A stretch of DNA of 64,000 bases from Cenococcum geophilum (Eukaryota), in the NCBI GenBank assembly GCA_050273025.1, contig CP158635.1, positions 2,852,001 to 2,916,000 of the forward strand. The letters run 5' to 3'. The position numbers were made by a program, and so were the translations under genes. This document shows, in pieces, positions 3,001 through 64,000 of this stretch; the stretch's first letter is position 1, and every line of letters starts with the position of its first letter. The notes under the pieces are model-generated. The model saw only the letters and a program-made list of their open reading frames with translations, did not search any database and had not been told where the DNA came from.

Positions 3001-6000
3001 AAGATATAGTTTCGCGTTACTCTACTATCTATTAGTGCTTCAAACTGCTAATCTTGCCATTTAACTTATAAATTTAGGTATTGTCCTTAAATTCCTTTAA
3101 GGGTCTAAGGCTTTACTACTAGCTCCCTCTAGTCCTATAGGCCTCTACTTTTCCTAACTATTAGCTGCTTAATCCTTATACATTTAGCTTATTCTTTAGC
3201 TAATACCTAGTTCGCTTTTTGTCTTTAATATACTATAGACACGTATTCTCTAGGTATTCTCACCACTATTATCTATTTAAGCATTCTTCCATAAGGAATC
3301 TTTCTGGCTAAAGTATTAAGTCCCCTTAGGCTTGTATTTCTACTAGGTGCTAACTATATATATACTTAGCGTTTTAATATTTTGCCTTATTTAATAACTA
3401 GTGTATCCTTACTAGGTACTTCCGGTTCTTATCTTTTAGTGCTCTATATATATTACACGCATTATCCACGCATATAATCTATGCCAATATATAATATGCT
3501 TAGTGTTTTAGGTCAACTCTTAGCTCGTCTTTATCCTTAAGTTTAAACCTCTCTTATATTAACCTAAGCGTTATAACTTTATTTATAGGTACTGTAATTT
3601 GCCTCTCTTCTCTAATCCTCTAATTGCTCCTCTAGATCTTTTAACGTCATAATTAAGGCTCCTTTAATGTAACTTATGGCCTTTTCCATAATCGGGTAGT
3701 CTTAGATAACTTTCTTATCTAACCACATATAGAAATCTTCCCACTTATCGTTATATCGTTACCTATACCACTTTTAGTACAGCTGCTAGAGTATATACGG
3801 CTCGTCCGTAAGGAAGTATCTTCTTATTACTATATTATAACAGCCCTTTATGTATTGTTTCTTAAACCTAGTTAAAATCCCTAAATCCTCTTCTTATTCC
3901 AGTTTGGTAAGCTACTTAGCTCTTAGTATGCCTATCCTAGGCCTATTAGTAATTTTTTATACTAGTGCTCTATCCCTTATATGTCCTAATATACTAGATC
4001 TTTTATCTAGTTTCTGTTCTTACTATACAATAATTCTTTACCTAAATTCTTCTATAGTTTCTTTTAGTTTACGTCTCGCAAATAAATCCTTAAAGTCTTT
4101 TTACTTCTTAATCTTAGTGTTATTATTTTAGTCTTTAGGCCAAACACTACGTTCTCCTAGTAAGTCTTCTGGGTTTATATATCTATCTCCTAGTCTAACT
4201 ACTATTTATACTATAGATTCTCTAATCTATAAAGAAGCCTCTTACCTCTTTCTTATGGGTGTTTTTATTCGTACTCCAAATTCTTAGTCCCTTAAATTCT
4301 TTAATCCTAAGCTTACTTCTAACTTAAGCTTAGCTTCTACCTTAGTCTAACTAGGCTTAGGTATTCTTATCTTATCTTAAAAGTCTTAAATTTTACTTAT
4401 CTCGTCTTAAGAGTCTTATATCTATAGGAAACTTCGTCCTAAGCTTATTCGTATATTTTTAAACTAAGCTATTACTCTACTCTATCGGTTATCGTCTATT
4501 ATAGGTCCTTAAGCTTACCTCATTTTATTCTAAGAATTTTGGTCATCTCTTATCTCATCTTAAGAGTCTTAAGCTTTTAGCCTTTTGCCTTTATTAAGTG
4601 CCAAAGTAGCTTACTATTCTACTTCTTTTATATCTTATAAAGCGATAGACATCATGTCTAGTAGGGTTTTAATCCCTACTAATATTCCCTGTTCTGTAGT
4701 GGAATTATCTTTTACCTCTTATATAACATCTCTAATAGCTATATATTCCTAGTAAACCGCCTCTATTACCTTATTATTATAAAATGTTTTGCCTATATTA
4801 AATTTATTATCCTTAATGTCCAATCTGCGAACTGGTTTATTAGTTCCTTTATATTCCGCTATATATAGCTCTTATAGCCAATAGCTTGCGCTATACTTAG
4901 CGTCCTTATAAATTTGGTATATATTATTATAACAAAACGCAAAACTTTTAATTGAACATTCTTTCGTTCCTCGCAGTATATTATTATCCCTCTATACATA
5001 TATATTGTCTGCTAGTCTTATCCCTTTTACTATATAGTAATTCTAACTACTTTTATAGTCTCTAACGTAATAACCTTATTTTCCGTAATTTATATAAGCT
5101 CCTTCTTTAAACTATTTTTCTTACTATAGAGTCCGCCTAAACGTCTTCTACTGTTAAGATCCCTAATTTAGCCTCTACTCCTTAGGTCTTTAATTACTTA
5201 ATCCTTACCCTCTAGGTTTCTATAATTTCTTACTCTACCTCTTATAGGCTTCTCTAGTACTACTTAGGTCCATTAGCTTTACGCTATACTATAGTTTTTA
5301 ACTTAGCTTTAGTTGTTACGTACTTTACACCTTATATAACTATAGAACTCTATTCTAGCCTCTTTTAGCATATTCCCTTTAGTAGATCTAATTATTAATC
5401 TTAATTGCTTAATCTATTAATTCCCGTAGGGTATCTATATCTTCTATTAGGATAATCGCGTTTTAGACTTTAGCCTTAAGTCCTTATTTATACTATGCCA
5501 TAAGCGCCTTATTATTCCACTCTACTTATATTACTAACGTCTAGAACTACGTTATATACTTAATTACTAAGGTTTGTTATATAATATCTTAGAGCTTTCT
5601 TTCCGCTATAGTTACTACCTCTAGGTCTCTAAATATTTATATAAGTTATTTTATAAACCCTTCCTAGCTTACGAACATAAACCATATATCTTAATTAGTG
5701 GTTATTATACCGTTTACTTATATCTCTATAAAGTAAGGCTTAAACTACTTAAGTGCCCTTCCTAATAGAAATAGTCCCGCATATACTATTCAATCCATAG
5801 GTATTAACAGCTTTACTCCTTCTTGCGTAACCTTAAAGTATATTTACGTAAGAAATCTTTTAAGTTTTAATCTTTCTCCTAAGTACCTTTTAATTAATAG
5901 TAACTTAATCTTTGCTACACCTATCCTATTAATCCTATTTTCCAACGTCGCATTATTTTCTATTAGCTGGTTAACTATCTCTTATAGTTATCTAACCGTT

Positions 6001-7021: not shown

Positions 7022-8314
7022 CGATCGAGTGCATTAGTGCCGATGGTAGGTATCTAGACCCTATGATTATTTGGCCAGCAAGTACCCATCGAAGCAACTG
7101 GACCACGTTCCCTACCCCCGGATGGCAGTATGCGTACTCCGAATCTGGATATACCGACTCTAAAATTAGCTTCGAGTGGCTTAAGCGTATATTTGATCCC
7201 CAAACTTAGGAGCAAGCTAACAAGAAACCACGGGTACTGATTTGTGACGGATTCTGTTGGAGATTGGAAGAAGAAGTGATTGCAGTATGCTTGATTGTAA
7301 AAGCTAGCTGTCTAGGTGTTATTATATAGACAAATAGACTTGGTTGCCTAGATGGTAGTAGCTGCCTGCTAGGCAGCTACCCATGATCTGGGATCCAACT
7401 GATTCGGGACGCACGAGACCCTCGAAATCTTAGAGTTTTGTTTCGAAAACAATATTATCCTATGTCGTCTCCCCTCTCACACCTCCCACAAACTCCAGCC
7501 CTGTGACGTCGCAGTGTTTGCCTCACTGAAGGACGCCTATCGCGAACAGGTTGATCGACTAGAGCGAGGAGGTGTGAATACAATCGGCAAGCAGCATTTC
7601 ACCACTCTCTTCAGCCCGGCAAGGGAAAGAGCGTTTACGCCGAAGAATATCAAGGCAGGTTTCGCTGCGAGTGGTTTATTCCCGTTCAATCCAGATAGAG
7701 TACTCAGACATATGCCAAAGCACCCCGCTGACCTAAATATCCCGAAAGCCGATAAGGTGGAGGTGGGGTCTTGTCCGCAAGATATAGTACTACAAACGCC
7801 TGTGACGCCAGTGTCAGCAGAGAGTTTCATGTCGCTGCAAAATCTAATCATCAAGCAGGTTGCTCATGCGCTTGATGACACAAGCAAACAGAAGTTAGAG
7901 AGGCACGTACTAAAGTTCACCAAAGCTGGCCAGATGTTCCTTGCCAAGGGTGCTCTCCAGGAGGACCAAATTCAATTCTTGACCACAATTAACAACGAAG
8001 CCAAGGCTCGACGATCAACCAAGTCGTTGGTCCTAGGGAAGGCGAAGGTCATGAGTCATGAGGACCTTAAGGAAGCACGAGCGAAGCGTGCTGAAAAAGA
8101 GGCTGCCAAAGAAGCCAAAGGTAAGGGCAAACGTGGTCGGAAGTGCAAAAGTGCTACGCCAGAGGCAGATGAAGCCACCATGTACAAGGCGAAACGTGGT
8201 CGGAAGCGCAACAGTGCTGTGCCAGAGGCAGATGCATCAGAGCCAAAGGCCAAGGTAGCGCGGATAAGTAACGCGCCAGAGTCAGTGAGAGACTCAGTGG
8301 CGCAGATGTGGTAG
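7022..8314 (+). pseudogene. pogo/Fot1-type (DDE_1) transposase relic, 5'-truncated and interrupted by a solo LTR
   Basis: TIECISADGRYLDPMIIWP...SESGYTDS...EWLKRIFDPQT*...RVLICDGF, resuming after the insertion as GTHETLEILEFCFENNIILCRLPSHTSHKLQPCDVAVF and running into ORF 7514-8314. The DGxxxH and LPxHTSHxLQPxDV motifs are typical of fungal Fot1/pogo. A possible element end is ...GGAGG|TA at 8473. Confidence 0.9.
7255..7400. mobile_element. 146-bp solo LTR (Copia-like termini) with 5-bp TSD GATTC
   Basis: Termini TGTTGGA...TCCAACT; GATTC at 7250-7254 and 7401-7405. Removing it restores the transposase frame (DGF-GTH). Confidence 0.85.
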
Positions 8315-9385: not shown

Positions 9386-11470
9386 ATGGTGATGACCGAG
9401 TATACCTACGTTTTTGCCATTGGCACAATGTTTGCGCTCCTTGAAGCGTATAACAATGGTGCAAGTACGTACTCCCTTACCTGTCCTGTACTCTTCGATC
9501 AGAAACTAACCATCGAACAGACGATGTTGCTAACGCTTGGGCGACATCCGTGTCCTCCCGATCCGTTACATATCGACAAGCCATGGCTCTGTGTTTGGTC
9601 TTCGAAATGACAGGTGCTCTGGCAGTCGGCGCCCGAACAGCTTCCACAATCAAGAACGGAATGTATGTTGTAGAAAACATAGGAAATGGCCAAGAGAATA
9701 CTCGCTAACGGCAACAGTATCCCAATCGCAGCATTCAATGGAAATGCCGGTGTTCAATTATTGGCTTTCGCTTGTGCCGCTGCAGGTGCGGCTATCTGGG
9801 TCATGTGGTGTACACGCCACTCTGCTCACGTCTCGTCAACATACTCATTGGTCTCATCTATCGCTGGTGTTGGTGTTGCCGCCGTAGGAGCCAAGAATGT
9901 CGAATGGGGTTGGAATAAGGGATCTGGTCTTGGTGCCATCTTTGCTGGTCTCTGCATGGCCCCCGCCATTTCTGCCGGCTTTGGAGCAATCATTTTCATG
10001 CTCATCAAAGTCGTAAGTCATATTGAATCGCCCTCACCAGGTACAGCTTGCTAACATCATGTAGACCGTTCACATGCGAAAGGACCCACTCAAGTACGCA
10101 GTCTTCACCTCACCATTCTTCTTCCTGATTGCAGGAACCATTTGCACGCTATCCATCGTCTACAAGGGATCTCCAAATCTCGGTCTCGATAAGAGGCCAG
10201 CCTGGTTCATCGCCAGTGTTACTCTCGGCGTTGGATTCGGATTGTTCTTCCTTTCCGCCATGTTCTTCGTCCCATACGTCCACAGCAAAATCTTGAAGAA
10301 GGATTACACCCTCAAGCTCTGGGATATCTGGCAAGGACCCGCTCTCTTCTTCCGCGAGGCACCAGCAGATGCATCAGAGGCTCGTGTACCAAACTATGCC
10401 GTTATTCAACACGGTGGTGAAGATGACGAGGACGACGGACATCTCGCAGCTCCAACCAAGGTACACAACAAGGATGAAGATGTCATCGAGAAATCCCCAT
10501 CTGGAAGTGATCAGGATATCGCAAATGAAAAGGGTCAAAGCAAGCCAGCCACAAGAACACTCGCCGAGATGGAAGATGCTATTGCCCGTGAAAACCCACA
10601 AGCTCAATACCAGCTCCTCCTCAGACGTGCGGAATTGAAGCATCATGCTGAGCTCAGAAAACACCGAGGTCCTCTTCCTTGGGCAATGCGTCTAGTCCAC
10701 AACAACCCAATGGGCGCGGGATCAATCTACGAAATTCACAACCTCCGAGCCTTCTGCATCCGTCTCCCAGCCTACGTCGTCATCGCCTTCCTCTATGGTT
10801 TCTACTACGATATTCACCGCGCACAAGTCGGAATCCTCGGTACACCTGAAGGTCGCCGCATGGACAAAGTCTACTTCCACGCCAAGAAATACCAAAATGA
10901 AGTTGAATACCTCTACTCTTTCGTGCAAATTATCACAGCTTGCACTGCTTCTTTCGCTCACGGAGCCAATGATGTCGGAAACGCTGTCGGTGTCTGGGCT
11001 GGTATGTACGGTGCATGGAGAACTGGAGAGACTGTCGCTTCCAAGGAAGAAGTTCCCCTCTGGCAAATCGCTGTTATGGCTCTCGCCATCTGTTTCGGTT
11101 TCATTACATACGGATATGTAAGTTTCCCCTTCCCCTCTTTCTTTTCCAGTCAACTAACAACTCCTTTCTCCAGAATATCATGAAAGTCATGGGCAACAAA
11201 ATCACCTACCACTCCCCATCCAGAGGCTCATCCATGGAAATGGGCGCCGCAATCACCATCTTAATCTTCTCCCAATACAAACTCCCCGTCTCAACATCCA
11301 TGTGTATCACCGGCGCCACCGTCGGAGTCGGATTATGCAATGGTACCTGGAGAGCCGTCAACTGGCAGCGAGTGGGTCTCTTGTTCTTCTCTTGGGTTAT
11401 GACTATTCCTATTGCTGGGTTGATTGGTGGTTGTTTGATGGGGTTGGCGTTGAATACTCCCGGTTATTAG
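9386..11470 (+). CDS. PHO89: Sodium/phosphate symporter, PiT/PHO4 family (PHO89 / Neurospora pho-4 homologue), 5 exons, 621 aa
   Basis: Exons 9386-9464, 9521-9662, 9718-10012, 10065-11117 and 11174-11470 total 1866 nt in frame. All four introns are GT..AG with a CTAAC branch point. Both PiT signatures are present (NGANDVANAWATSV, HGANDVGNAVG), plus SPSRG and LPVSTS..ITGA motifs. Confidence 0.96.
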
Positions 11471-12392: not shown

Positions 12393-13435
12393 ATGGAAAG
12401 GCTTCCTAAGGGCGTTAATGCTTTCGTTATAGTAAGTAGTTCTAAATATATTTAGAATACGTTGCTAATATAATACTAGCGTGGTAATAAGGTGGATTTA
12501 ACTATAGGGGAGGTTTTCTATTGGTATAATGTCTCGCCTAATCTAGAGAATCTGGTACTATATAGTATAAGTAGATAAATATATTAGGTTTATAATACAT
12601 TACTAATATATTTATAACGCGTTTAGAAGAAGGTTAAAGATTGCGGCACCCTTAGAAACTATATAAAGAAGCATAGCCTTAGAACCAGGAACATTAGAAA
12701 AAAAGGGGCTCCTTCTATTAAAAAGCAGGAAGAAGTAATAGGTATATATTCTAAACGTGTTCTTAACCTATTTATAACTAGTTACTAACCTATTATAGCC
12801 TTCTATTCCGCTATTATGGCTATATATAATTAAAACATATTAGGAACTACTTCTAAATATAATCCTACTAGTCCAGGCCGCTCTACTGCTACCTAACCCC
12901 CCCATACCCCCACCCCGGCTCCCCCTAGCCGCCCTTTTAGGACTACTGCCCCACAATCAACGGCTCCCATTTAAGAGAAGGTTATACCCATTAGATTTAA
13001 AAGTAGGCCTTAAAAAGGCGATATAAGATATTCCTAACGTGTTTATAATATATTCTAATTAAGTTCCTAGTATAACTTTCTAAAAATAGTTACTCTGCTT
13101 AAGGAATTAGGTGCTAAGGTTCCATATACTAAGTGTTTAGATACAACTTCTATAGGTAAGTTAATTTAGAACCCGTTTTAAACCGGTTAAAAATACATTC
13201 TAAATTTATTACAGCCTACTTATTTAAGGGTTATCTTAATTAGAGCTACTTTATTAATAATAGGTTGGATAATACTAAGGCTCCTACTACTCCAGCTTCT
13301 ACTGCTCTGGCTCCTACTAAGACTTCTAAAAAGCGTTTAAAGAAGTCTAGTTTAAAAGGTTTAAAGGCTGTAAAGAGAAATGCTACTAAACCTGCTAGAC
13401 TTACGGAGGAGGATATTACGGTAGATCTGTTTTAA
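12393..13435 (+). pseudogene. Spliced accessory gene of the TIR element, with a possible C2H2-like zinc finger
   Basis: ATG at 12393 followed by GTAAGT-type introns. The joined exons read GEVFYWY...LVLYS-KKVKDCGTLRNYIKKH, compatible with a C..C..H..H finger after reversing RIP changes; Pro-rich and Lys-rich segments follow. The end is approximate. Confidence 0.5.
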
Positions 13436-14020
13436 TAGATAACCTAGAATCTAATTTATAACGTATTTATAATATATTACGAATTAAATCTTATAAATGG
13501 AGTTTAGACTTAAATTTTAATAGGGTTTTATACCACTTTGGAACGTGTTTATAACACGTTAGGTAGCAAAAATAAAAGTTATTGGTTAAATTATAATATT
13601 TATTAAAATTTACTAATTTTAGCTCTTTCTAATAACTCCCTTTATATACTTTATAATTCTAATAATTTAATTATAAACTAATTATTATTTAAATTTTAAT
13701 AAAATAAGAGTTTTAATTTTTAAAAATAGTATAAATATATAGTAAAAAAAGCCTATTAAATTAAATTATTTTATAATAAATATAATTTTAAATAAAAATT
13801 ATATATTTAATAAAAATTTAAAGTATATTTACTTTAAGCTATTATAATAGTATTTTTTTTAAGTATTTATTTAAATATAAAAAATTATTAAACCTTTAAA
13901 TAATATATATATATATAAATAAAATATAAAATTAGTTAATATAAAACTTATTTTATTTAATATATTTTTAATTAAGTATTAGCTAATAGTTTTTATAAGT
14001 AACTATATTTATATATATAG

Positions 14021-14166
14021 TAGTAGTTCTTTAATTAACGTCTAATACGGATCCTATCTAGGCCCACACAGACTACTCCGTCATAGGGGGAAAACTTATA
14101 TATTTACAGAAAGAAAACCCTATAGTTTAGGGGAGGAAAAACCCTATAAGCTACCTTAGTTAGATA
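14021..14166 (-). mobile_element. 5'-truncated copy (146 bp) of the SINE-like element, with 16-bp TSD
   Basis: Reverse complement of ~48930-49079, including the AATTAAAGAACTACTA tail; ATATTTATATATATAG at 14005-14020 and 14167-14182. Confidence 0.85.
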
Positions 14167-14589
14167 ATATTTATATATATAGATAAGGCTTAAATATATA
14201 GATAGTAAGTAGTAAAATAATACATTTTTTTTAAATAGAATAAAGATAAATGTTTAGATTTCTTATAGCCTTTTCTCCTATTTTTTACTATTTAATAGTT
14301 ATTAGTACCTTAGTATTTTATTAAGTAACTATAAACCCCTAATTAAAAGATTTATAAATTATTAAAATATAATTACTAATATATATTAAGCTGCTTAAAA
14401 AGGATTTATATATATAGAACTATAGTGCTATAATCTAGAGACTGTATATATAGTATTATATATAGTATTAGACGTTATATAATAAAACAATCATTAAAAA
14501 AGGCCTAAATATAAGTATATCTTAATAGGAACTTAATAAGAACATATTTAGAACATATTTAGAACGTATTTAGAACGTATTTTATATTT

Positions 14590-17500
14590 AGTATACTCGT
14601 TATTACATATAAGCCTTTATTGCCTCTAATTAAATTCTTTTTTCCATATTCTCTAGCTCCCTTACCTCTAATTTAATCTCCATTTTACGAAGTTTAAGTC
14701 TCTAACATCTTTCTTAAATATCCTAGTTATTGCTTAAGGCCTAACGCTTTAGTAACTATAAGAGACCGGTGCTAATACGTCTAAAACGTATTAGTAACCG
14801 GTTATATATACATTAAAATATAAAGGCGGCCTTATAATTCCTTAGATGCTATAAAGGATAACCTAAAACGCGATACAGATCTAGATCTTAGCCCCCTTAA
14901 ACGCCAAGCAGAACTAGATCATAACCTTACTATACCTAATAATAATGCCTAAAATAAAATATTATCCTCGTTATTATTAGCAGCGGCCTACTCTAATTCT
15001 TCTTAAAGTTATTAACGTTTTTATTCTAAACGTATTAGGAACCGGTTTAGAAGAAAATCGCAATAAATATATACTCTCTCTACCTATATAGTTTATATAT
15101 CGGGCCGACATTAATGTGTTTCTTTACATATATTATATTCCGAACTAGTTCCTAGCAAAATACTAATTAACGTCCCGTTAATCTAGTTTTTGTACGCTAA
15201 ATATAATATAAGCATATTATAAACGGGTTAGGAATGTATTAATACCTTATAACAGCAGGAAGAAGAAACTACCGTATACCAAATGCATATAATTTATTTG
15301 CTGTTTATTCTACTACATTTATATAGTGTCTTAATCTATCAAATAGCTTATAATTAATCAGAGAGCAGTACTTATTTAAGCCTAAGGCGATAACTAGGTG
15401 TCTCTTATATCTCGCCCAGTTAGCAACTAATCGAGATTCGTGTGCTATGCTATTAACACCTTCTAAATAAATTATAAACGGGTTCAGAACAACTTACCAA
15501 TTAGTAAATTATAGAGTTCTTCGTATTTTAACTAGCTCTTATATATAAGAAGAGCTTTCATCCATTTATATACAGAGTAGGCCGTTTTATAGTTACCCGC
15601 GGCTCTTAAGATGCTTTATAGGAAGTATACTCAGCAGAAAACTAGTGTTTTCCTAAAATGCCACGTCCAATCGCGCCTATAAGGATCAATATGCTATAAA
15701 TACCGCCTAAACCCTTTTATAATACGTTAGGAAGGCGTTCTAATTACATTCTAGGTATCCTACCAGCCATTTACTTACCATCTATATTAGATATAACAGC
15801 TTTAAAGCCTTCCTTACCACCATAAATATATTTCCAACAAATCTACTTCTAAAGACATTTAGAAAGCAATTAAAAGACTCGCTTAAAGTATAACTAATAA
15901 GTACGCCTTATTTCCATATTAGTAATAACGCATGCAAGCGTAAATACTGTTAGAATATATTAGCATCGCGTTCTAAACGGGTTTATATTATATTCTAATA
16001 CTTTTACCATACTCTTTAAGCCAAACAGCGAATATAATCTCATTTATATTTCTTTTAATAATACGTTTAAAAGACATATCAACTTTAAATATGTTTTAGG
16101 ATAGGAAGATCTTAGCTTACTCTTATAGAAAGCAGATTATTATAAACCCGTTTTAATTATTATAGATCTGTTAGATATAAGCCTATAACATATTAGCAAG
16201 CCAATTAGAACGTGTTCGTAACGTATTTATTACCATTTTAGGATTTCGATGCTTTTAATTAAACTCATATACTACCCCTACTAGTCCTTTTCCTTCTGGG
16301 TATAGAGTAAGCTTCTCTTTTTAAATTATTCTAGTAATACGATCTATAGTAGCAAAGCTTACATAGATCTATACTAAAGAAGCCTTTCTATACTGCATAT
16401 AAAACTATTTAAGGGCAGGACTTCAAAGAAACTTTCCTATAAAGACGTTAGGTATTTATTCGCAATCAGTTTAGAACATATTTACTAAGAGTAAGATCTA
16501 GATTACGCATTTAACAAACCAACTTAATTACCTCATTTAATATCTCTAGAGGCGGCTTATTTAGGGGGGGTAGTGTATAACTATATACCCTATACGAGGT
16601 AAAATAAATATAAGGAGTCTCTTCTAAGTCGTCTAGAACAAAAACATAAAAAGTAACCTCGCAGTCCTAATGGATAAGTTTCCCTAGTCCCTAGGGGTAG
16701 TTAATTCCTATAAATACGTTACAAACATGTTATAAACGTAACCAGAATGCGTTCTAAGCAGGTTATATTTTTTTCTTACCGCAGTCTACCCTTCTACACA
16801 GATTTAATTTAATAACTCCGCATTTCTCCGTTGCATCGGCACCTATATTGCCTAGTTAAATAAGAGATATTAAATACGCAGTATCGTATTTCTCATTTGC
16901 TAGTAATGCTTTTCAGAAGTGCTCTAAATATATTTCCATAGTAGCCTATATGCAGGTAAGAAATAAGTGCTAAACGTTAGCAATATCCTAATATAATTAG
17001 TTCTAAACGTGATCTAGTTAGGTTCTAAACATATTTAGGTAAGATAATTACATACAGAGTATCTTTATTACTTAATTGTTAGTATACAAGCCTCTATTTA
17101 AGAGCTGCATACATTTCCAGCTTAAAATTATCTTTAAGCTGCTAAAAACAAGCTTATATACATTAACTTAAGTACTAAATATATTTAGAACCAGTTCCGT
17201 ACCTATTTATATTACATTTACAAATATCCGGGTCGCTTCTATCCAGGGCCGCCCGCTCTCTCTATATTAGACCCTACGTCTCTTTAGTAACTATAGTGTG
17301 GCTTAAAGATCGTAACCAATTCTAAAGATATTCGTAATATTTTACTCCTAAATAACGCATTTTATATTTTTTACCTCTTATATTTAAGAGAGCGGACATT
17401 ATAGGCTTAGGAGTATGCACTTATTTAGTTTTGTATTAGATCTAAACGCGTTATAAACTAGTTATAAATATAGTTAGGGCATAATTTAGATTTTTATTAA

Positions 17501-17925
17501 CTTACCTATATAGCTTTTTGTGCATCTATGCCTCTTAAGTTAATACGGTAAGTATAACCTTTATATAGCGTCTATAGGTACTCTAAAAGACTTAAACAAT
17601 CCTTAATTATAAGTATAGTAAGAGGATTAGTAAATGCCTTAGTAAGAAATGTAATATAAGGAACTTCAGGCTAAATACGTTTAAAACTAGATTAGAACGC
17701 GTTTAGAACGTATTAAAAACTTACCTTAATTTAATCTTGCGGCTATATTTAACTCTCTTCTAGCATATAATCTTCTAACCTAAGGATACTATCTTCTAAA
17801 TTAATTTTAAACTTATTTTTATTATTACTAGAGAAATCTAGTAGCTAGTAATTATTAGATAGATCTGTTTAAATTAGAATATATTCCAAACATATTACAA
17901 ATACGTTATAACTAGTTACCTATAA
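14590..17925 (-). pseudogene. Multi-intron MULE-like DDE transposase relic
   Basis: Minus-strand exons give TFKVDMSFKR (~16063-16092), GFKAVISNID (~15780-15810) and GFRRYL*HIDP...TLVFC*VYF (RIPed CxxH, ~15621-15720), plus N-terminal RYLGVKYYEYL (likely C-x-G-x-K-C-C-EYL). A D...D...CxxH layout is characteristic of the Mutator/hAT/P/Kolobok group. Ends are approximate. Confidence 0.65.
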
Positions 17926-18598
17926 TAGTTGGTTCTGTTTTGGAGCCGAGAGGTAAATTATATGGTGGGATAAGCAATTTACGCTCGGTTGACCACGTAA
18001 TCTTATATTTTCAGCTAAGGCTGCCCCGTGCAGGGATTGTGCATTAGCGCTTATAGTAGACCCACCCTTTAGCGTGGCCTAACCGACTTGTAACTACCTA
18101 ATCCACCTTTATTACCAAGTGACCAGGGATCCTTGATCGCTTAATTTGGAGGTACCAACCCATGTGGCGACGTCGCATGACACAGCACTCCCTGGTCACC
18201 ACAAGGCTGAAAATGATTTTTCAGCATCGTGGTGAGGCTCGGAAACCCAGATCAAAGTGTTATATAAGTTTGAAAGGCGCAAAGAGCTCGTGGTGGTGCT
18301 GTAGGTCGAGGGGTTCTGTTATACTTCAAATTGACGCCCTCCGCAATCAGGCGCGACGGCGACGACGTGATTGTAAATTTCAAAGTAGCTGGAGTTTGGA
18401 CTGTTCAGGAGTGGTCACGCAATATAACTGACACAAAAATACCGGAATTTTCATTGAATTCACAAATTTAGAATCAATTGAATTCAAAGTACCAATAGTT
18501 TGTCTCGTCACGGGGTGCGTCTCTCGATGCAGGGATGCACGTTACTGTATACGAAGCAAGACATAAGCATATCTCATTGGTTACACACACGATCTAAG

Positions 18599-18663
18599 AG
18601 ACAAGGGGCAAAGACAAGGGGCAAAGACAGGGGGCAAAGACAGGGGGCAGAGACAGGGGGCAG
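18599..18663 (+). repeat. 13-bp tandem repeat x5, AGACA(A/G)GGGGCA(A/G)
   Basis: Five consecutive units are directly visible. Confidence 0.95.
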
Positions 18664-19063
18664 AAAATTCTTGGTCTGAACTCAGGTACCCATCCAGCTC
18701 CCTTGCCTAATTCTAATTATATCCGGGATCGACGAGGAGCCGCATCGGGGCCCTCAATCGTCCAATAGAGATAGGATCCAAGTGACTCCCCTGCCTCTTT
18801 CCAATTATAGCCTTGGCGATCGACAGGATCGACAGGGGCCCCGCAACCCGTTCGATAAGCGAGAGTCAGAGACGCTGCTATGATCCCCTCCAACGCTTAC
18901 TCTAAAACACTTTCTTAATGAGTTGATCTTAAAACCTTTGAATCCCACAACAACGAGCGGTTGCTTTAACTAGATTTCGAAACCCATCATTTATAAGAAC
19001 AAGTCCAGCCCTACCCATTTGACGATACTCCGTTACCTGCAGTCCCACCCATTGGATTCAATT

Positions 19064-19714
19064 ATGGATTCTGTTACGTCTCGAAGCGTGTTTCCTACGC
19101 CTAAAGTGGTTTCAGCTAGGCGATCCACCAGAATGGTGCCACTGGCAACAGGACATGGCGTCCATTTGACCACTACGTGCTTGTTGAACGGGCCCACCTC
19201 GAGAATGAGCGTCTCTGAAATTTACGAATGGCTTGCTGAAAAGTATCCGAGCTACCTATACACAAAACGTAAGATTCGCCATGTTCTAAGACATGATTCC
19301 GAGAGAACGAGTCCTAGATTTGTTATTGCTAACAAAAATCGTATCGCGGGAGTGCCAATTCGATGGACTATTCGGCCTGGAACAGAGGCTCAACTCCACC
19401 GATTGTTCAGTGGCCCTCCCCCTGCCGAGCCTCAATTTCCCCGGTCCTACGACGGCCTTTCTCAACTAATTTACTGCGTTCTTTGCAACCGACGGTTTGA
19501 TCGCCACGAGAGTGTTGCGAGACACCAACGAGAGGCCCATCTTAGCGAGCCGGGGATGGGGTCAAAATATGCTGCTGGCGAAGCCCCTCCCGAAGACCAG
19601 TCTTCTGCAATTACCAACACCCGGCGTGATCGAACTTGGGACCGCCGGCCTTCAGAAGAGCCCTTATCAATAGTAACCACGTTTGAGGAGGCGGATGGGA
19701 GTGAGGTCGTTTAA
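19064..19714 (+). CDS. Divergent forkhead-like domain plus C2H2 zinc-finger protein
   Basis: RMSVSEIYEWLAEKYPSY...IRHVL...RFV...WTIRP aligns by eye with the forkhead consensus (LTLSEIYEWI...FPYY...IRHNL...F...WTLDP); CVLCNRRFDRHESVARHQREAH is a C2H2 finger. First ATG at 19064; no evident RIP bias. Confidence 0.7.
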   Translation: MDSVTSRSVFPTPKVVSARRSTRMVPLATGHGVHLTTTCLLNGPTSRMSVSEIYEWLAEKYPSYLYTKRKIRHVLRHDSERTSPRFVIANKNRIAGVPIRWTIRPGTEAQLHRLFSGPPPAEPQFPRSYDGLSQLIYCVLCNRRFDRHESVARHQREAHLSEPGMGSKYAAGEAPPEDQSSAITNTRRDRTWDRRPSEEPLSIVTTFEEADGSEVV

Positions 19715-20482
19715 AGTCCTGATGCAGTAATTAGGGGAAATGGCGCTCTTCAACGGAGACTTCGAGACTGTTCCAGGAGGGAGTTGTCTGTCGATGGCAG
19801 CACGAATCATAAGTTGTACACTAAAGCGGCGATAGTATCAGCCAGAGGGATAGTGGAGCTGGCTCGAGTAAAGATCGATGGAGGCAGCCTACACAACCTT
19901 CTTCCTCGATCGATAGCCAGTAGACTCGGATTACCTCTACACTTCGGCAGCAGTATTAGAGTAAGAGTCGCCAACTGCACAGCTCTGACCGATCAATATT
20001 GCCGATTAACCATCAAAGTGGCTGGTATTGAAACAACAATCAATACTTGCGTGGTTTCCGAACTGTCTTCCCTTCTGCTAGGTTGGGAATGGACTCAAGA
20101 GGTTAATTTGTTGAGTGATCTTAGAAATTACAGGTACTATATCCCAAGGCCCCATGAGAACCTGAACGAGCTTCCCGCTCATGGGTCTATAGCTGAGGCC
20201 GAGGCTGAGACGGAGTTTGCAATGGGAGCTGCTGTAATAAGAGAAGAGACTCTATTGGCTAAAGAGGCGCCAACCGCTCTTAGGGGTGATGAAGGGCACG
20301 GCGACGAGGAGTGCGACCTTCGTGAATTGGCAAGTGTTGATGCGTCTGCCACAGGAGATGAGACGATAAGTGATGCTGAATTTTTCGCGGATGCTGTCTC
20401 CTATCAAAGCTCAGATGACGACCTTTACTATATTGATCGACTGGCAGAAGGAAGGGAACTAGGAGTAGGGGGTAAGAAGTAA
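19715..20482 (+). CDS. Retropepsin-like aspartic protease domain with acidic tail, in frame with the upstream ORF
   Basis: ARVKIDGGSLHNLL (D-G-G-S active-site motif), a VRVAN flap region and the LLLGWEW helix motif. The frame is open from 19715 with no ATG before the protease domain. Confidence 0.65.
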   Translation, partial: SPDAVIRGNGALQRRLRDCSRRELSVDGSTNHKLYTKAAIVSARGIVELARVKIDGGSLHNLLPRSIASRLGLPLHFGSSIRVRVANCTALTDQYCRLTIKVAGIETTINTCVVSELSSLLLGWEWTQEVNLLSDLRNYRYYIPRPHENLNELPAHGSIAEAEAETEFAMGAAVIREETLLAKEAPTALRGDEGHGDEECDLRELASVDASATGDETISDAEFFADAVSYQSSDDDLYYIDRLAEGRELGVGGKK

Positions 20483-21189
20483 AGCGTGAAGGCAAGGTCT
20501 AATAGATCACTTGCGAGAGAACTGCGATATTGACCGAATTTAACCGACGCGTTATTAGTCTTTAACTTTCTTGACTTGTAGATGACCGTAATATTATGTA
20601 ACGCGTTCCAATTGTTTATGATCTTAAGATGACCAAAAGGCCTTTGAAATTAATCGTATAATAAAACTAGTCGTACAATATTGAGCCTGTGTGTTTGGGC
20701 CCTTTAGTCACATGACCACGAGGACTGAATGGCTTTTTGTTGCACATCGCAAAAAGAAAAGGGCACTTTTTGTCCGGCAAGTCGGTGCAGTGCAGATTAT
20801 AGGAATGCTCCGGATTTTTGTATCATCAGCCGAAGTAGTTTGGTAAAATTTCAGCTTGCTCTAAGTTCTACTAGACCGAATTCGTGCACTTCAAGCCAAA
20901 GCAGTCCGAATAACACTACTGGACTGCGGACTACTTTGGCTTGAAGTATGAATAAGGCACATACGCCATTGTGTAGTATGTTAAAGTATTATACTTTAGA
21001 CGCAATCACTTTAAGGTGCAATATTTCAAACCGATGTATATGCAGTTGTAGTACTCCGAATCTAAAAATAGTTTCGAGTAGTAAACTAGTTACGGTTACT
21101 AATCCACAAGGTGATTCGTTGTGGAACTAGTGACGCGGCGGAGGGAGGCGATAGAGTGAGTGAGGGGTCGAATTGGGTCCCAAGGCGCT

Positions 21190-21470
21190 GGCGTATGAGG
21201 AACACTGGTGTTGGGAATGGAGCAAAAATTCGGGTCCCTGACAGTAGCGAATCCGTCACGCCGGCGCTTGAGGAACGCCAGCGTTGGAGATGGAGCAAAA
21301 TTGGGCTCCCTTACGCTGGCGCATCCGTTGCGATGGCGCTTGAGGAACGCCAGCATTGGAGATGGAGCAAAATTGGGCTCCCTTACGCTGGCGCATCCGT
21401 TACGATGGCGCTTGACGAGCGCCGGCGTTGAGAATGGAGCAAAGGGCTCCCTGACGCTGGCGTATTCATT
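21190..21470 (+). repeat. GC-rich 72-bp tandem repeat, about 4 copies
   Basis: The GGCGCTTGAGGAACGCCAGC...GGAGCAAAATTGGGCTCCCTTACGCTGGCG unit starts at 21263, 21335 and 21407, with a diverged copy near 21190. Confidence 0.9.
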
Positions 21471-22024
21471 GCACTGACGCCTGGAATGGAGGTGGGAGCG
21501 TTCTTCTAGGATTATTCTCCTGGAGGCCCTGCCCTCCCCGAAGATTTGTCCTGGCCGCTACAATGATCAAGGAGCGTTCTGCAGGGAGGCTTGCTCCCAG
21601 AAGCTTTCTCCTCCGTAGAAAGTGCACGTGATCCCCCTTTAGATCTCTCTGCGAGACGCTTGAAAGAATGCGGTGTTATTACAAAATACTCACCTGAGGA
21701 GAGAAGGGTTGTCTAGCTTAAATAAGGAAGATGCTTGTTAGCTCACGTGACATCACACTGTGACAATGTCGTGTTGTCTCAGCATGCTCAGACCAAGAAA
21801 CCGATAAATATCCGCTGCGCGGATAATCGAATATCCGCAAGCTAACCTATTCAATCAATCCATCTATTCCTTGGTCTAAGCCACTTTAGCAAGCTTTTAG
21901 AAGCTGAGCCGCTCTATTTATATAAGGCAAACCATTAACTTTAACGAAATTAATATAAGCAACTGCTACGTCTATTATCCTGTAAATACCTGCGTTAGAA
22001 TTACCTTAATTAGCTCTCTAATTA

Positions 22025-24830
22025 ATGGATTTTCTAGAACTAACTGCTAGCCATAGGTGCATCCAAAAGGCGTTAAAGAAACCCCTCTACTTCATCTAGC
22101 AGGAGCCAGTCTTCTTAAGCTTTTAACAATAAACTACCTTCTCCATCTACTAATACCGCTAGAGGATTAAGAGATATAGCGGATATAGTACCTAAGGACA
22201 TCAGCGGTCTCGTCCCACCCCTATCATCTCCCCTATTACTATCCTCAGCTTAAATACGGTCCTTAATAGCCCACTTACCGCCACTAAACTATATAGATCC
22301 CCAAGAGGATAAAGAAGTAGGAGTTAATAAAATACCTATAATATCCGTAATATCCGCAATATCCGCTAAGAGGATATCCGCTGCAGAGAAGGTCCGGGCA
22401 ATTATTAACCGTCTTAGGCTATAGCGGATATCTATAGGAGACCTAGCACTTAAATAGATTATAATAGCTAAAGGTTTATATAAGGCACTAAAAAAAAAAA
22501 GAGTAAGGGAGCTTCTTAGTAAACTCCTAGAGGATGCTAATATCCTAGATATCTATACTAAAGAGATAGAGAAACGCGGTATAGTAGGTACTAGTATTAC
22601 TCTTACCATCTAGGGAGAGCTTAAAGAGCTAAGGGAGAAAGAGTTACTATTTAGCGGCTTTAACTAATATACGGATATTAAGCAGCTTAACCTTAGGCAG
22701 TGCTATTAAGCTATAAAGACTTACGTACCTACACTAGAGCATATAATTATAGCATATTAAAAGGGTTAATATAAACATTCTCTATATAAAGGCCGTGCGG
22801 TTCTAATAGCTTCTATACTTATATTTAGCCTTTTACAAAACTCCACAAATTATATCCTACAGCTGTTAGGGATATATCTCTAAGCTAACGGCGTTAAGCG
22901 CCACGTGCTTTCTGTGCTCTATAGGCTTGGATTAATTAATAGTTATACTACTCTAAATTAGTAGAAGGAGCGGGTAGCCCAGGAGTTAAGGTTTAGCCTA
23001 TAATCTCCGCGGTATAGGCGCACACTAACCTATATATAGGTGAAAATCCGTTTAATGGGTGCCGCTTCTAATACGATTGTTATCTATAATAACTTTAACT
23101 ACCTCTAACAAGTTTAGTATTAAACACTTAGGGATACTAGGACGTTCTATTCGCGCATAACTAGCAAGCTTATCTTTAGCATATATATACCTAATAGTAG
23201 GCTTTAATAAAGTATGCTTTATACGGATATCCTAATTAAGTTCTTAGATATTATAGAGGCTCCAGGTAATTTACAAGACGAGATATAGAAGCAGATCTTA
23301 ATAGCTTTAATTTATAAAGCTATTATAGAAGCGTACCTAGGCCTTAATATATTACTTAGCAAAAACCTACGGTTTAAACATCTATATATGCCTACTATTA
23401 ATATAATACCCGCTGCGCGGACGTCTGGGCTTAACCTAGGACCTATTATAACTGGAGAGGCTTCTATATCTAAAACCTAGAGGGTACTAGACAACATCTT
23501 TCTCTATTAAATAAATCTATAACGTACTAATAAAGTATTTAAGGAGCGACTGTTTCTAATCTATAGTAATCAAAAAACCACAAAGCTTATTTAGTTGTAT
23601 TGGGGAGAATATATTAAGTTAATATCCGCCTACAATAGCCTGCGTTAGGCTCTGCCTATTCTAGCTCTTTAGCACCTAAAGCTAAACTACCTATATATAG
23701 TTATACGGTATCACTATAGTAGCAAGTAATTAGCCTAAGAGTACTCTATGCTGTATACCTATATAAACCACCTAGGCCGAAGGAATATCCCAGCCAAGCA
23801 CGCGCCGTTTTATCATATAGAGGAGCTAATTCTCCATAGCTTTAACGCTCGTATTATAGCATTGCTCTATACTTAGATTAAGGACTCCTATAACACTAAG
23901 TCGCCTATAGATATTAAGTGGTACCTTAAGAGTTTATCTCCGCAACGTCTATTAGTAGTAGTTAAGGATATCCGCACAGCTGTTTTTGGTTAAGAAGTCT
24001 CTCAGGCAGCTAACTATACTAGCCAGCCTACGGAACCGTAGCGAAAGGGTTACCCTAAGTAGGCTAGCAGTGCTATATCCTTATAAACACTTCCTAAGCC
24101 TGCTAATATAGAGTTTCTAACGTATGTCCGCTTCTTATAACTAGTAGAGACATATAAAGTCCTTAAGCACGCTATTAAGCTTATAGATATCGGCCTGCTT
24201 AGCCACGTACTCCCCCGCATCTATATCTATTTCATAGGTAGTTAGAATAAGAACTATTTACCAAAGATATTACGTTTTTTCCAGTTAACTTTAATAGATG
24301 CCTATTCCCCTAAGCTCTAGCAAGCTATCCTAGTAATAGTTTAGTAAATAACCGCGGCAAATAAAATAGTTACTACCCAATAGATCTTAATAATAAGTTA
24401 CTTAATAGGGAGCTGAAGTAGCTTATACACGCTTATAGCAATTTAACGTTTAACCTAGACTTGCTCTTTCGCTAGAGTATTTATATAACTAATTATATAG
24501 GGCCACTACGTGTAAAGTTTAAGATCATATTTGGCGAACGGATGTTTACTTGATATACTGTTAAATCTACTATAGTAGATATTTAATTGCTTGCTAATGC
24601 AATTACCGTAGGCTCTATTATTTGCCGTTAGGCATAGCAAGCAAAGATAGAAACGCCACCTCTATTATAACTAGGCATTAAACGGCTTAATTAATCTGCC
24701 CTTAACGAGTTCAATTTATAGCTAAGCGGTAATCTTTCCGCTATATTTAATAAGCTTAATCTCCATAACAATAATAATAAGTTAGATAGCTTTATGCTAC
24801 CTACTAACTTTACTTAAACCTAGCTTTAAC
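22025..24830 (+). pseudogene. Academ-type (DUF6589-like) transposase relic
   Basis: IVIYNNFNY (~23076-23102; YDN), LFLIYSNQKT (~23550-23580; GDQ.T) and PILAL*HLKLNY (~23655-23690; WH..N); probable intron ~22991-23039. Ends are approximate. Confidence 0.75.
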
Positions 24831-25049
24831 CTACGTATAAGCTGCTTAATAAGTAATATAAGATATTAGCCATAAGCTACTACTATAACCGTTTAATATC
24901 CGCTATAGTTAGTAGCACTAGTATATATTCCTAAGTAATTAATATTATTAATTAATTAATCTATTTAGTTCCTAGGCCGCGCTTACTAGGGATATAAAGT
25001 AGGAGGGGGAGGGGGGATTATCCTAATAGATATTAGCTACTGTAGTTAT

Positions 25050-27620
25050 AATATCCGCTTAGCGGATATAAGGTAAACTTACCTAGTATCAGCTAACCCC
25101 GCCTAATATTAGCTAACCTCGCCTAATATTAGCCCGCTGTATACTAATTAGCGTTGCCGTTAATTTCCTATAGTGCTCTTTATATATGTTTACCTCTATT
25201 TAATCGCGCTGACTGCCTCTATAGTACTAATAAAGATGTATCTAACTAGTAGGTTACTAGCGGTAGAGATATATCTAACGGCTAGTATAAGGGTAATAAT
25301 AGAGGAGTAGGAGCTGGAGACCTAAGAGTTGGCGAAGGTATAGGTACATCCTCTTCCTAAGTTATTGGTAAGAGGTCTATAGCTAACTGTTAACTAGCCT
25401 ATAATATATTAGCGCTACGGCGAAGTACTAATTGCCACAGCGCTAATATTTTAAATCTCCTATCTAAAACCTGCGAAGCCCATATAAGAGCTTATAATAA
25501 GCGCTTATCTATAGTAGCGTGCTGCTCTAATGCTTAGGAAAACCGCTCTAACATCTATATAATTAACCTAGAAGGACCTAAGAGTTACCCTATTTCTTCC
25601 TATTTCTGCTTTTATTCCTTATCTACTAAAAGCTTAATAAGGGACGGAAGCTCCTTACTAAGGATATCAGGATCCTACTTAGGCATTACTTACCTTAATA
25701 ATACCGTATCTAGAACCCACCCTATATTATAGAGGCAACAGAGCTGCTTATCCGGTATAATGTAATTAACTATAGGCGTTTATAGTGTATCCTAATACCT
25801 AGCCTCCGCCTATCGCGTAAACTACTTTTATATATTGCTTAATATAGGCTCCTAGCGGGTTTTCGCGATATCCGCACTATAGCTAATGCGGATATCGTAC
25901 TCGTAATCCGTGAATATTGTTAGGTTATAGTTACTATAATATAAGTCTTTACTAACAGTAGACTGTGGGTCTCTATAGTGTATAAGTTATATCTTTCGTA
26001 AGTATACCTAATCCTTATTAACTAGCCGCTATAGGGTGAACGGCAGTTTACTATATAACTGCGCATTAGTTAACCGCTTCTTTAGGCGTAGGGTTGGTAC
26101 GATAAGCTCTTTAGGTAGGCGTACTATAGAACTACTAGGGCTTAACCTATACCCGCTTCTTATATCTACTAACTGCTTAGTACTAACTAACGCTATAAAT
26201 AAAGCATCACCCACAATATCCGCAGTCTCTACGTTTTATTGCCCGCGGATATTATTACGCAGCGCGCTTACGCGAAGATCGCCTATATACTAAGGTTATA
26301 TATGCTTAGAACCACCTAATTTATTATAAGGACCCCGCTAGCGGCTCTTAACTATAAAAATTGCTTCGCCTAAGAGGCCTTCTCCTCAGCCTACCTAGCC
26401 AAACCGCTGTGTTAGTATATTACAGGATTTATAGCGAGGCATTCTATATTAGATTAAATGGTAGATATCTAGGACATCTGCACCGTATGCTACTGCATCT
26501 AATGTAACGAAAATTCGAATTCAAGACATTAGGCGCGCGTATTCGGCGTATAAGCGGTCTTTATTAATATCCGTAAGCGTTATATAGTAGCTCTAAACCG
26601 CTTCTCTAGCAATAGCAGTATTATAGCCACGATAAATTAACTAGCTGCAAATAGTATTACAACAGATAGCTATCCACTCCTTAGAATTAAAGAAAATAAT
26701 CGTCTTTAGAATTAGCTAAAGTTAATTAAACTATTAATGATATGCGGATATTAAGCGGCTTCTTAATTACTCACCCTTTCCTCAGTTACTATTACTAGCA
26801 GTATATAAATACACTAGAGTAGCAGCAATAGTAAAGTAAAGAGCTCGAAAGTTCTTCTTTCTGGCGCGGTTATAACCCTCTGTATAATCTTTAGCTCTGG
26901 CCGATTAATTAGGGTTTTAATAACTTGTATATTAGGTTTAAACCTAGCCAGCTTATATACAGTCTAAAACGTAGAGGGGTCTAGCGTTGCGGTATATGTA
27001 AACTAAGGCTTATTAACCAAGACCGAACATACTTTAAAGAGTTATGCGTACGCTATACGGAAGGTCTCTCCTTAATTAGTAAGCAGATATACTTTATTAA
27101 CCACTATAAGGGCAATATAAGAACGAAACATCGGGTCTATTAGAACCTTATATAGCTTATCACTAACTAAAAGCTCTAGGGAGATAAGGATATGTATATA
27201 GCTGCCCGTGCGGATATCCTCAATTAGCTTAGCGGATATTGTCTTCCCCTATACATAAACAGGTTAAACATAAGGTAGCTTTGTAATCTTTTTTACTTAC
27301 TCTAACCTAATCGCGTTAAGTAGAAGAATAATAATAACAACTGCATTAGGTACGAGACATGGTAGTGCTTATATTATTATACTCTTGCTAAAAGACGTCT
27401 TTGCTATAAGCATAAAATCTCACCGCTTAAATATTAGCACCCTTAGGGCCTTAAGCTGCTCCGTACAACCGCGGTACAGATATATCTCCGCAATAGCTTC
27501 ATCTAGCTTACTTATTTAAAGCTAATAAGAGCTGTTTATAAGCTAGGGTAGCTCCCTCCGTAGGCTATATAGCCGTAGAGACCGCTAGGAATCCATTTCA
27601 ATGTAATCCCTAGCCTATTG
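25050..27620 (-). pseudogene. RecQ-like superfamily II helicase relic
   Basis: LIAKTSFSKS (Walker A, ~27381-27410), VVNKVYLLTN*GETFR (RIPed DEVH, ~27058-27105), YTATL (motif III, ~26982-26997) and QRFG*VG*G (motif VI, ~26385-26411). Ends are approximate. Confidence 0.85.
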
Positions 27621-28187
27621 CGTACTGCTAGCTTGTTAATCTGCTTAACTGGCTTATAGTTTATAACCTCTTTGCCTTATTTGCTTTAATGGAGGTATTA
27701 ATAAATAGCGTTTAAAAGCAGTAGAGGGAGAGTAGAGGGTTAAATATAGTCAGGGAGAACTTAAATACGTTATAATAGATAGATCTTAATAGGTTTTAAT
27801 TATTGGATTATAGATATAATAGATAGAGAGTGGGTGGTTAAGATTAACGCGTTATTAGTGCGGATATTGCTAATTGTTTACTTTAGCAAACCGTGTCACG
27901 GCTATTTTAAAATTAATATTAGGAACGGGAAGGCGGGGAGACTTCTTACGTAGACCATTCGATTCGCCAGAGCTTAGTATATAATTAATGAATTTTTTAA
28001 GCTGCCTAAACTCGTCGTAAGAATAAGAAGTGAATATCCGTAATATTTGCTATGCGGATATCGTGACGTGCGTTACAAACGTCGGCCAAAGTGTCTCAGA
28101 CCTTACAGGGACAGATGGCCTAAACTGGTTTAGTGCCATCGGGCCGGATTTATCCGGCCTCCCTGTGGTCTGAGCATGCTGAGACAA

Positions 28188-63700: not shown

Positions 63701-64000
63701 ACAGTTTTATGGTATTTTTATTATATTTTTATTGCATTTTTATTACAGCCAAAAATTAGGGTTTGCTTAAGTCGCTTAAGTCGCAATTTTAGCAATTTAT
63801 ATAAAGTAGCCTGCAAATCGCTGCAAATCGCCGCAAATTACCAAAGTTGCGACTTAAGCGAGTTAAGCAGACCCCAATTTTCGGCTGCAACAACGCGCCC
63901 AAAAAAAAATCCTGATGGAGGAGAAATAATTATAGCTTTTTAGTTATATATAAGAGGAGATACCTTATATACCTGCCTAATATTATAAACGCTTTAAGTA

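Follow-up and report, generated by a model that had tools for sequence, protein, structure and literature searches.

We analyzed a stretch of 64,000 nucleotides from Cenococcum geophilum (GenBank assembly GCA_050273025.1, contig CP158635.1, positions 2,852,001 to 2,916,000 of the forward strand), hereafter the window, and followed up a gene at 19064..20482 in which an initial annotation, made from the letters alone, had recognized a forkhead domain, a C2H2 zinc finger and a retropepsin-like protease split by one stop codon. The DNA is fungal-looking, with islands of normal GC content between AT-rich blocks. Two stop-to-stop open reading frames (ORFs), 18974..19714 and 19715..20482, lie in a common frame on the + strand, as do all features of the gene given below; from the ATG at 19064 the sole interruption is TAA 19712-19714, and the joined reading comprises 472 codons. 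As described in the annotation, the 23 codons after the TAA are open, as is the entire downstream frame, and the second half has no start of its own, its first in-frame ATG being the methionine of a distant EFAMG, far downstream. Apart from the register of the recognition helix, the coordinates and description of the locus given there were correct. The first ORF part (19064..19714, 216 codons and the TAA) holds the forkhead domain and the finger and is the only product expected from this allele; the second (19715..20482, 255 codons and a stop) comprises a linker, a retropepsin-like domain and an acidic C-terminal tail (20193..20479) and would lie beyond the reach of translation. Our data indicate, with a probability of about 0.8, that the locus is an expressed, recently nonsense-mutated copy of an uncharacterized, transposable element (TE)-derived fungal family of forkhead–retropepsin fusions.

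The forkhead, or winged-helix, domain (aa 34-110; 19163..19393) was supported both by profile searches and by structure prediction, the two checks that had been proposed for it. The Pfam family PF00250 matched aa 34-109 with E=5.2e-6 and 26.9 bits against a cut-off of 27; the relative P0035 clears this cut-off with 30.2 bits, and 12 of 29 family members match at E<=0.01. An AlphaFold2 (AF2) model built on 30 aligned sequences reached block-mean predicted local distance difference test (pLDDT) values of 89-96 over about aa 31-110 and shows three helices and a beta wing, the winged-helix fold of forkhead box (FOX) domains. Foldseek comparison with the PDB retrieved almost exclusively forkhead DNA-binding domains (FOXN3, FOXK1, FOXN1, FOXC2, FoxA1/2 and FoxO1), with probability 1.00 and template modelling (TM) scores, normalised to the target, of 0.5-0.73 (0.54-0.73 for FOXN1/N3/K1/C2/A1). 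The family sequence profile, when run against the PDB, matched FoxA1 with E=2e-4, and FoxA2 was also matched.

In forkhead domains the N-x-x-R-H of helix 3 is a DNA-contacting feature. The initial annotation had called this recognition helix diverged, setting RKIRHVLR against NSIRHNLS. The divergence held and the register did not: in the HMMER alignment it is H-V-L-R-H of the window that stands opposite N-S-I-R-H of FoxA1, so that Arg-His is retained in this copy, while the family consensus at the same place is K-V-L-L-H. The complete N-x-x-R-H is absent from this copy, since its Asn is replaced by His here and by Lys in most members; the Arg is Leu in most members, and only the His is general across the family. 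We therefore regard the domain as a diverged forkhead, which differs from FOX transcription factors also in being fused to a retropepsin-like domain. The single finger YCVLCNRRFDRHESVARHQREAH (aa 137-159; 19472..19540) scored 14.9 bits against a cut-off of 25.2 with PF00096. It carries the full C-x2-C-x12-H-x4-H pattern, and in the AF2 model it forms two short strands and a helix (beta-beta-alpha) with pLDDT 61-74. The finger is missing from the chromodomain-bearing subfamily described below.

In the second half, Asp_protease_2 (PF13650) matched aa 51-126 with E=1.2e-4 and 23.1 bits against a cut-off of 24.3, and gag-asp_proteas (PF13975) gave 18.1 bits against 28.2; the PF13650 match corresponds to 19865-20092 within a domain that we delimit at 19808..20140. 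Seven of the 29 family members match PF13650 at E<=0.01. When a profile of 12 family members was run against 1.84 billion representative proteins, it found 305 proteins at E<=1e-3 and 134 at E<=1e-10. The longer matches, with E of about 1e-10 to 1e-11, include proteins with Retrotrans_gag or Ty3_capsid, a CCHC knuckle and gag-asp_proteas, and the gag-linked P0152 and P0163 clear the Pfam cut-offs for both gag-asp_proteas and Asp_protease_2. Because the family profile matches such gag/CCHC/protease proteins, homology of the protease-like domain to gag-CCHC-protease proteins of the Ty3/gypsy type can be regarded, by transitivity and at the level of sequence, as firm. The likeness takes in the domain and its acidic tail (P0164 aligns over 190 profile positions) as well as the common motifs [LIV][LIV]DGG[AS]xxN[LM][IM]P and LLLGRRW. 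The window gene differs from these proteins in having neither a gag capsid domain nor a CCHC knuckle, the forkhead and C2H2 finger occupying the place of gag and nucleocapsid, and no reverse transcriptase (RT) or integrase was found nearby among the 14 ORFs scanned; moreover, its stop is a mutation and marks no gag/pro boundary. A protease-only profile run against the PDB matched only HIV-1 protease, and weakly (E=0.015 for covalent dimers, 2.6 for a single chain), in the expected register after the active-site loop.

The tetrapeptide DGGS (19877..19888) stands at the place of the retropepsin D-[TS]-G-A active-site motif, as the initial annotation had proposed for a DGGS-type protease with an acidic tail. 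In 111 of 179 relatives the active-site position is covered, and it is occupied by Asp in 100, Asn in 8, Tyr in 2 and Arg in 1. The residues that follow are GGS (16), GGA (11), GSS (11), GDS (11), ERS (9), GTS (6) and rarer forms, and the canonical D-[TS]-G was found in none of the 111. The gag-linked proteins uniformly have DGG[AS], the form that is seen in the window. Retropepsins have a second conserved motif near the C-terminal part of the domain, two hydrophobic residues followed by G-R-D/N-like residues, and its counterpart is well conserved in the family: most relatives have LLLGR.W (hydrophobic-hydrophobic-G-R-x-W) and the window has LLLGWEW (20072..20092). Judged by these motifs, the domain belongs to a distinct 'DGG' clade of retropepsin-like domains whose catalysis is putative, and the further relaxation of the active-site motif in the fused subfamilies hints that some members may have lost catalysis. 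The self-processing that the initial annotation thought possible is hypothetical, the active-site motif being non-canonical. We take Ddi1 (UBL-RVP-UBA) and SASPase to be comparable, as cellular-looking proteins in which a retropepsin-type domain is joined to targeting modules; the window family differs from them in having no UBL or UBA and in having DGGS instead of DSGA or DTGA, and no sequence match to Ddi1 was detectable in the PDB profile searches.

The fusion is not confined to this genome. Uninterrupted proteins that follow the joined reading colinearly are 412-454 aa long and cover 87-97% of it at 53-71% identity; they were found in Xylaria polymorpha (450 aa, 70% identity), in Amylocarpus encephaloides (416 aa) and Phialocephala subalpina (412 aa), and on many contigs from metagenomes. 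The two halves are therefore adjacent in several fungi, a point on which the initial annotation had staked its proposal. Twelve of 29 close members carry a chromodomain, and P0066, P0068 and P0085 a bromodomain, with or without a chromodomain. The last ~12 codons of the window's tail (YYIDRLAEGREL) resemble the chromodomain start of other members and then run into the stop; no chromodomain remnant was found downstream of 20482 by tblastn with chromodomain-bearing members.

New proteins are known to arise when host domains become fused to domains derived from retrotransposons. That a forkhead–retropepsin fusion is unknown, as had been stated, held for the literature, where our full-text search found no such protein, nor, in what was searched, a retropepsin-like domain with forkhead/C2H2 or, as in the sister subfamilies, with chromo- or bromodomains; it did not hold for sequence databases, in which intact members are filed as 'hypothetical proteins'. 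A screen for fungal host–TE fusions includes gag-asp_proteas (PF13975) joined to host domains, with n=296 after curation (Mob DNA 2024;15:2, PMC10799480). Its main text and three of its supplementary files mention neither 'Forkhead' nor PF00250, and as far as these go the forkhead–retropepsin architecture lies outside that catalogue. The family is an unreported variant of host–TE fusion proteins, in which a DGG-type retropepsin is tethered to DNA- or chromatin-binding modules. Such an architecture points to a proteolytic or scaffold activity directed at chromatin in filamentous fungi.

Comparison with relatives showed how the frame was broken. Seven related DNA loci were recovered, and the codon at the stop position is CAA in 4/4 of those aligned there. 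Among 63 related proteins spanning residue 217, 34 have Gln, 11 Ser and 5 a gap, the rest having other residues; P0037, which at 90% identity is the closest, is among those with Gln. The TAA corresponds to a C>T change in a TCA context, and a second C>T in a like context lies at 19732. When window-lineage changes were polarised with L002, these two C>T, at 19712 and 19732, were the only changes between 19543 and 20180, in keeping with a recent break. The tail, in contrast, holds 28 of 40 window-lineage changes within 20181-20427 and is more like the tail of L006 than that of L004, a hint of recombination between members of the family.

Purifying selection, whose absence the initial annotation would have held against its own proposal, is detectable. 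The ratio of nonsynonymous to synonymous substitution rates (dN/dS), obtained by the Nei-Gojobori method, is 0.46 for the window vs L004 (dS 0.11) and 0.45 vs L002 (dS 0.42). It is lower within both domains (forkhead 0.33-0.40; protease-like domain 0.23-0.39) and 0.39-0.85 in the tail, and against L004 it is 0.53 for the N-terminal half and 0.42 for the C-terminal half, the values for both halves being about 0.4-0.5. Both halves were therefore moderately constrained for most of their history. These results bear out the annotation's first option, a recently broken chimera of about 472 aa.

The gene is transcribed. The stretch is present in 20 public runs from 17 studies, 13 of these runs being recorded as RNA, and contigs of three RNA-library runs from three studies (X5, X12 and X17) match 18707-20617 with 0 differences. 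Their 5' ends lie at 18707-18746 and their 3' ends at 20587-20617, and their depths range from 12 to 173 across metatranscriptomes. They include the TAA unchanged and run unspliced across 19712, in keeping with the earlier statement that no in-frame intron removes the stop. The contigs lack 59 nt at 20134..20192 with GT..AG ends, and because of this splice joint we conclude that they derive from RNA; the orientation of the intron points to a + strand transcript. In X5, an unspliced contig (depth 91.6) stands beside a spliced one (39.9). The intron is not a multiple of three and shifts the frame, giving AAT TAC AGC TGA (NYS, then the stop TGA). The codons that it skips are conserved protein sequence in relatives, and its 3' AG is absent in L002 and L006, being found only in the window/L004 lineage. 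We read this intron as a lineage-specific splice within what would now be the 3' untranslated region (UTR). No sign of stop-codon editing was seen in the RNA contigs, in which rare variants would be hidden; rescue of UAA by A-to-I editing would presumably need two events.

We propose that the ancestral gene, a single intron-poor fungal gene, encoded one polypeptide of about 420-470 aa in which a forkhead-type winged helix at the N-terminus was followed by one C2H2 finger, a linker, a retropepsin-like domain and an acidic tail, the retropepsin-like domain having probably come from the protease of gag-CCHC-protease (Ty3/gypsy-type) retrotransposon proteins. Sister subfamilies have a chromodomain and/or a bromodomain in addition. 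In the intact protein, the retropepsin-like domain may be tethered to DNA or to chromatin. Here, one C-to-T transition would have turned the conserved Gln codon CAA into TAA, and as transcription continues, the 216-aa forkhead/C2H2 fragment should be the sole product of the allele, with the protease-like half becoming part of the 3' UTR.

Three other accounts of the stop were considered. That the TAA is an assembly or sequencing error is hardly credible. It is a single-base difference from all relatives, as an error might be; yet the contigs from the three RNA-library runs show 0 other letters across 19712, and all sampled words of the stretch were present in four DNA runs, which are possibly the source of this very DNA. 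The initial annotation had offered, as its second option, a gag-pro-like arrangement in which a leaky TAA gives a short DNA-binding protein and a minor full-length forkhead–protease. Such programmed readthrough would fit the open frame downstream, the mRNA that covers both halves and the apparent descent of the protease domain from gag-protease genes. We judge it very improbable, since the four aligned loci read CAA and the stop is absent from every related protein that spans the site, an A follows at +4, TAA-A being a strong terminator, and a frame-shifting intron lies within the downstream half. The 90 nt after the stop, furthermore, fold no better than shuffled sequences (z = -0.94; 38 of 200 shuffles equal). 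The surroundings of a gag-pro element were likewise not seen, there being neither long direct repeats in 15000-25000 nor an RT or integrase among 14 ORFs scanned. Since relatives read CAA or Gln, the context is TAA-A and no downstream structure exceeds chance, we conclude that the stop is a lineage-specific nonsense mutation and not a conserved recoding signal.

The truncated 216-aa protein might instead be a selected, stand-alone DNA-binding factor, for instance a competitor of full-length relatives. The transcript was assembled from many metatranscriptomes, the N-terminal half is intact and keeps the Arg-His of its recognition helix, and some forkhead-bearing relatives (P0011, P0026, P0029 and P0030) have other C-terminal parts, all of which speaks for this. 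On the other side, dN/dS against L004 in the N-terminal half is not below that in the C-terminal half, the sister copy L003/L004 is broken within its forkhead region, and no conserved truncation at this place was found in another genome. We consider the proposal improbable and prefer to regard the allele as nonsense-mutated. The window copy itself would then be an expressed premature-stop allele without a recoding system, and of limited interest.

The family as a whole is probably mobile. None of the 7 related DNA loci is intact, each being disrupted by stops, frameshifts, deletions or RIP-like decay (RIP, repeat-induced point mutation). In L001 and L002, whose translated stretches as shown are identical, the LLLGW motif has TGG>TAA; L003 and L004, likewise identical in the stretch shown, have three deletions, one of 1 nt in the forkhead domain, one of 6 nt and one of 25 nt that takes out the active-site region; L006 is broken by a large deletion together with a frameshift; the sequences of L005 and L007 are AT-rich and RIP-like, with many stops. 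Neighbourhoods of the related loci share nothing with the window, L004 being surrounded by HET, GTP cyclohydrolase, P-type ATPase and MuDR fragments and L002 lying near an RNase H fragment; only about 0.3-0.9 kb upstream is common to the window, L003 and L004. Between Xylaria (Sordariomycetes) and Phialocephala (Leotiomycetes) the proteins share 88% identity over 401 aa, and between-class identity in the family is 84-88%, which seems high for a protein with dN/dS about 0.45. By comparison, an exon of the phosphate transporter gene in the window is 55-65% identical to named ascomycete proteins, 55-58% to Sordariomycete proteins, with a Cladosporium protein as the best named relative (65%), in a search that covered longer proteins only. 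Since the loci are disrupted, the neighbourhoods unshared and the cross-class identity high, duplicative or horizontal movement of the gene is suggested, and the family would behave as a mobile or horizontally spreading, often inactivated element and not as a stable host transcription factor. Occurring patchily across classes and often inactivated, the family is a candidate for horizontal spread.

The gene may alternatively belong to ordinary, vertically inherited host transcription factors, with broken copies incidental and no mobility or horizontal transfer. This would agree with about one named protein per annotated genome, with the detectable purifying selection and with the lack of linked transposition features: no LTR-like or TIR-like (long terminal or terminal inverted) repeat was found within 15000-25000, and no RT or integrase in the 14 ORFs scanned, out of 27 ORFs of at least 110 aa in the window, the AT-rich flanks lying outside the profile scan. 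The initial annotation, which had noted no adjacent LTR, RT or integrase, was correct in this respect. Against vertical inheritance stand the disruption of 7/7 related loci, two of them heavily RIP-like, where RIP acts only on duplicated DNA, the absence of shared synteny, and a between-class identity of 84-88%, against the 55-58% that the phosphate transporter exon shares with Sordariomycete proteins. We find purely vertical descent possible but doubtful, and favor a TE-derived, spreading fusion family. A more far-reaching version of this reading, which we put forward only tentatively and think rather unlikely in full, would make the window a decaying copy of an undescribed gene class that spread between distant ascomycete classes, captured its DGG-type retropepsin from gag-protease genes and uses forkhead+C2H2, chromodomain and bromodomain as interchangeable tethers; its product might be a sequence- or heterochromatin-targeted protease or pseudo-protease, possibly anti-transposon or selfish.

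Several observations weigh against our reading of the locus. The Pfam scores of the window copy fall a little short of the curated cut-offs for all three domains. The AF2 model of the C-terminal half has pLDDT 40 and gives no structural support for a protease fold, so that the fold is deduced from sequence, and of the profile and structure check that had been proposed for this half only the profile part was borne out. Since contigs drop rare variants, low-level recoding or a minor CAA allele is possible, and the steady RNA abundance despite a premature stop could mean that the truncated protein is of use. Searches of 15000-25000, of the 14 ORFs and of the repeats of L002 linked neither terminal repeats nor a transposase, RT or integrase to the gene, and 'mobile' is therefore said on indirect evidence; the cross-class identity could also reflect assembly contamination. 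Finally, of 40 changes on the window lineage, C>T or G>A make up 16 and A>G or T>C 18, and the gene is RIP-free overall. As C>T/G>A changes are not in excess in this spectrum, we assign no cause to the nonsense mutation; RIP, considered because of the CpA context, is compatible but not shown.

The gene itself is not RIP-like (TpA/ApT 0.86; (CpA+TpG)/(ApC+GpT) 1.12), whereas its flanks have classical RIP indices (1.47 and 1.66; 0.48 and 0.54), in agreement with the earlier description of the region as not RIP-eroded. A 13-bp tandem repeat, AGACAGGGGGCAA, of 4.9 copies lies 5' of the transcript start at 18599..18662 (+ strand), and the repeat scan and alignment placed it also 5' of the L003 copy. 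About 0.5 kb upstream of the transcript, 18117-18544 is 66-68% identical to L003 680-1107 and L001 1104-1528, which are themselves upstream of related copies. Downstream of the gene, at 21189-21462, there is a 72-bp tandem repeat (3.8 copies, 83% matches), and a similar stretch occurs, inverted, at about L002 6969-7054; 20857-21056 is 75% identical to L002 7946-8145. In L002, a 64-nt inverted repeat, 77% complementary (375-438 / 7350-7413), brackets the related copy; it has no counterpart in the window, and we did not accept it as an element boundary. Tandem-repeat arrays with periods of 15, 17, 18, 65 and 90 bp are also present in L002 and, with the inverted repeat, could mark a larger element.

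Elsewhere in the window, an ORF at 7403-8311 holds the C-terminal part of a DDE_1 (pogo/Tc1-like) transposase domain (E=1.1e-10), and a long open frame of 629 aa at 62054-63943, in a moderately AT-rich region, has no Pfam match at E<=0.01. The phosphate transporter gene, at 9534-11470, is a multi-exon gene of the PHO4 type, with PF01384 matched in three ORF pieces. AT-rich blocks (GC 0.21-0.38) with strong RIP indices, at 1-6000, 12500-18000, 22000-28000 and further, surround the GC-normal islands, and the first 6 kb of the window show a marked GC skew of -0.27 to -0.36.

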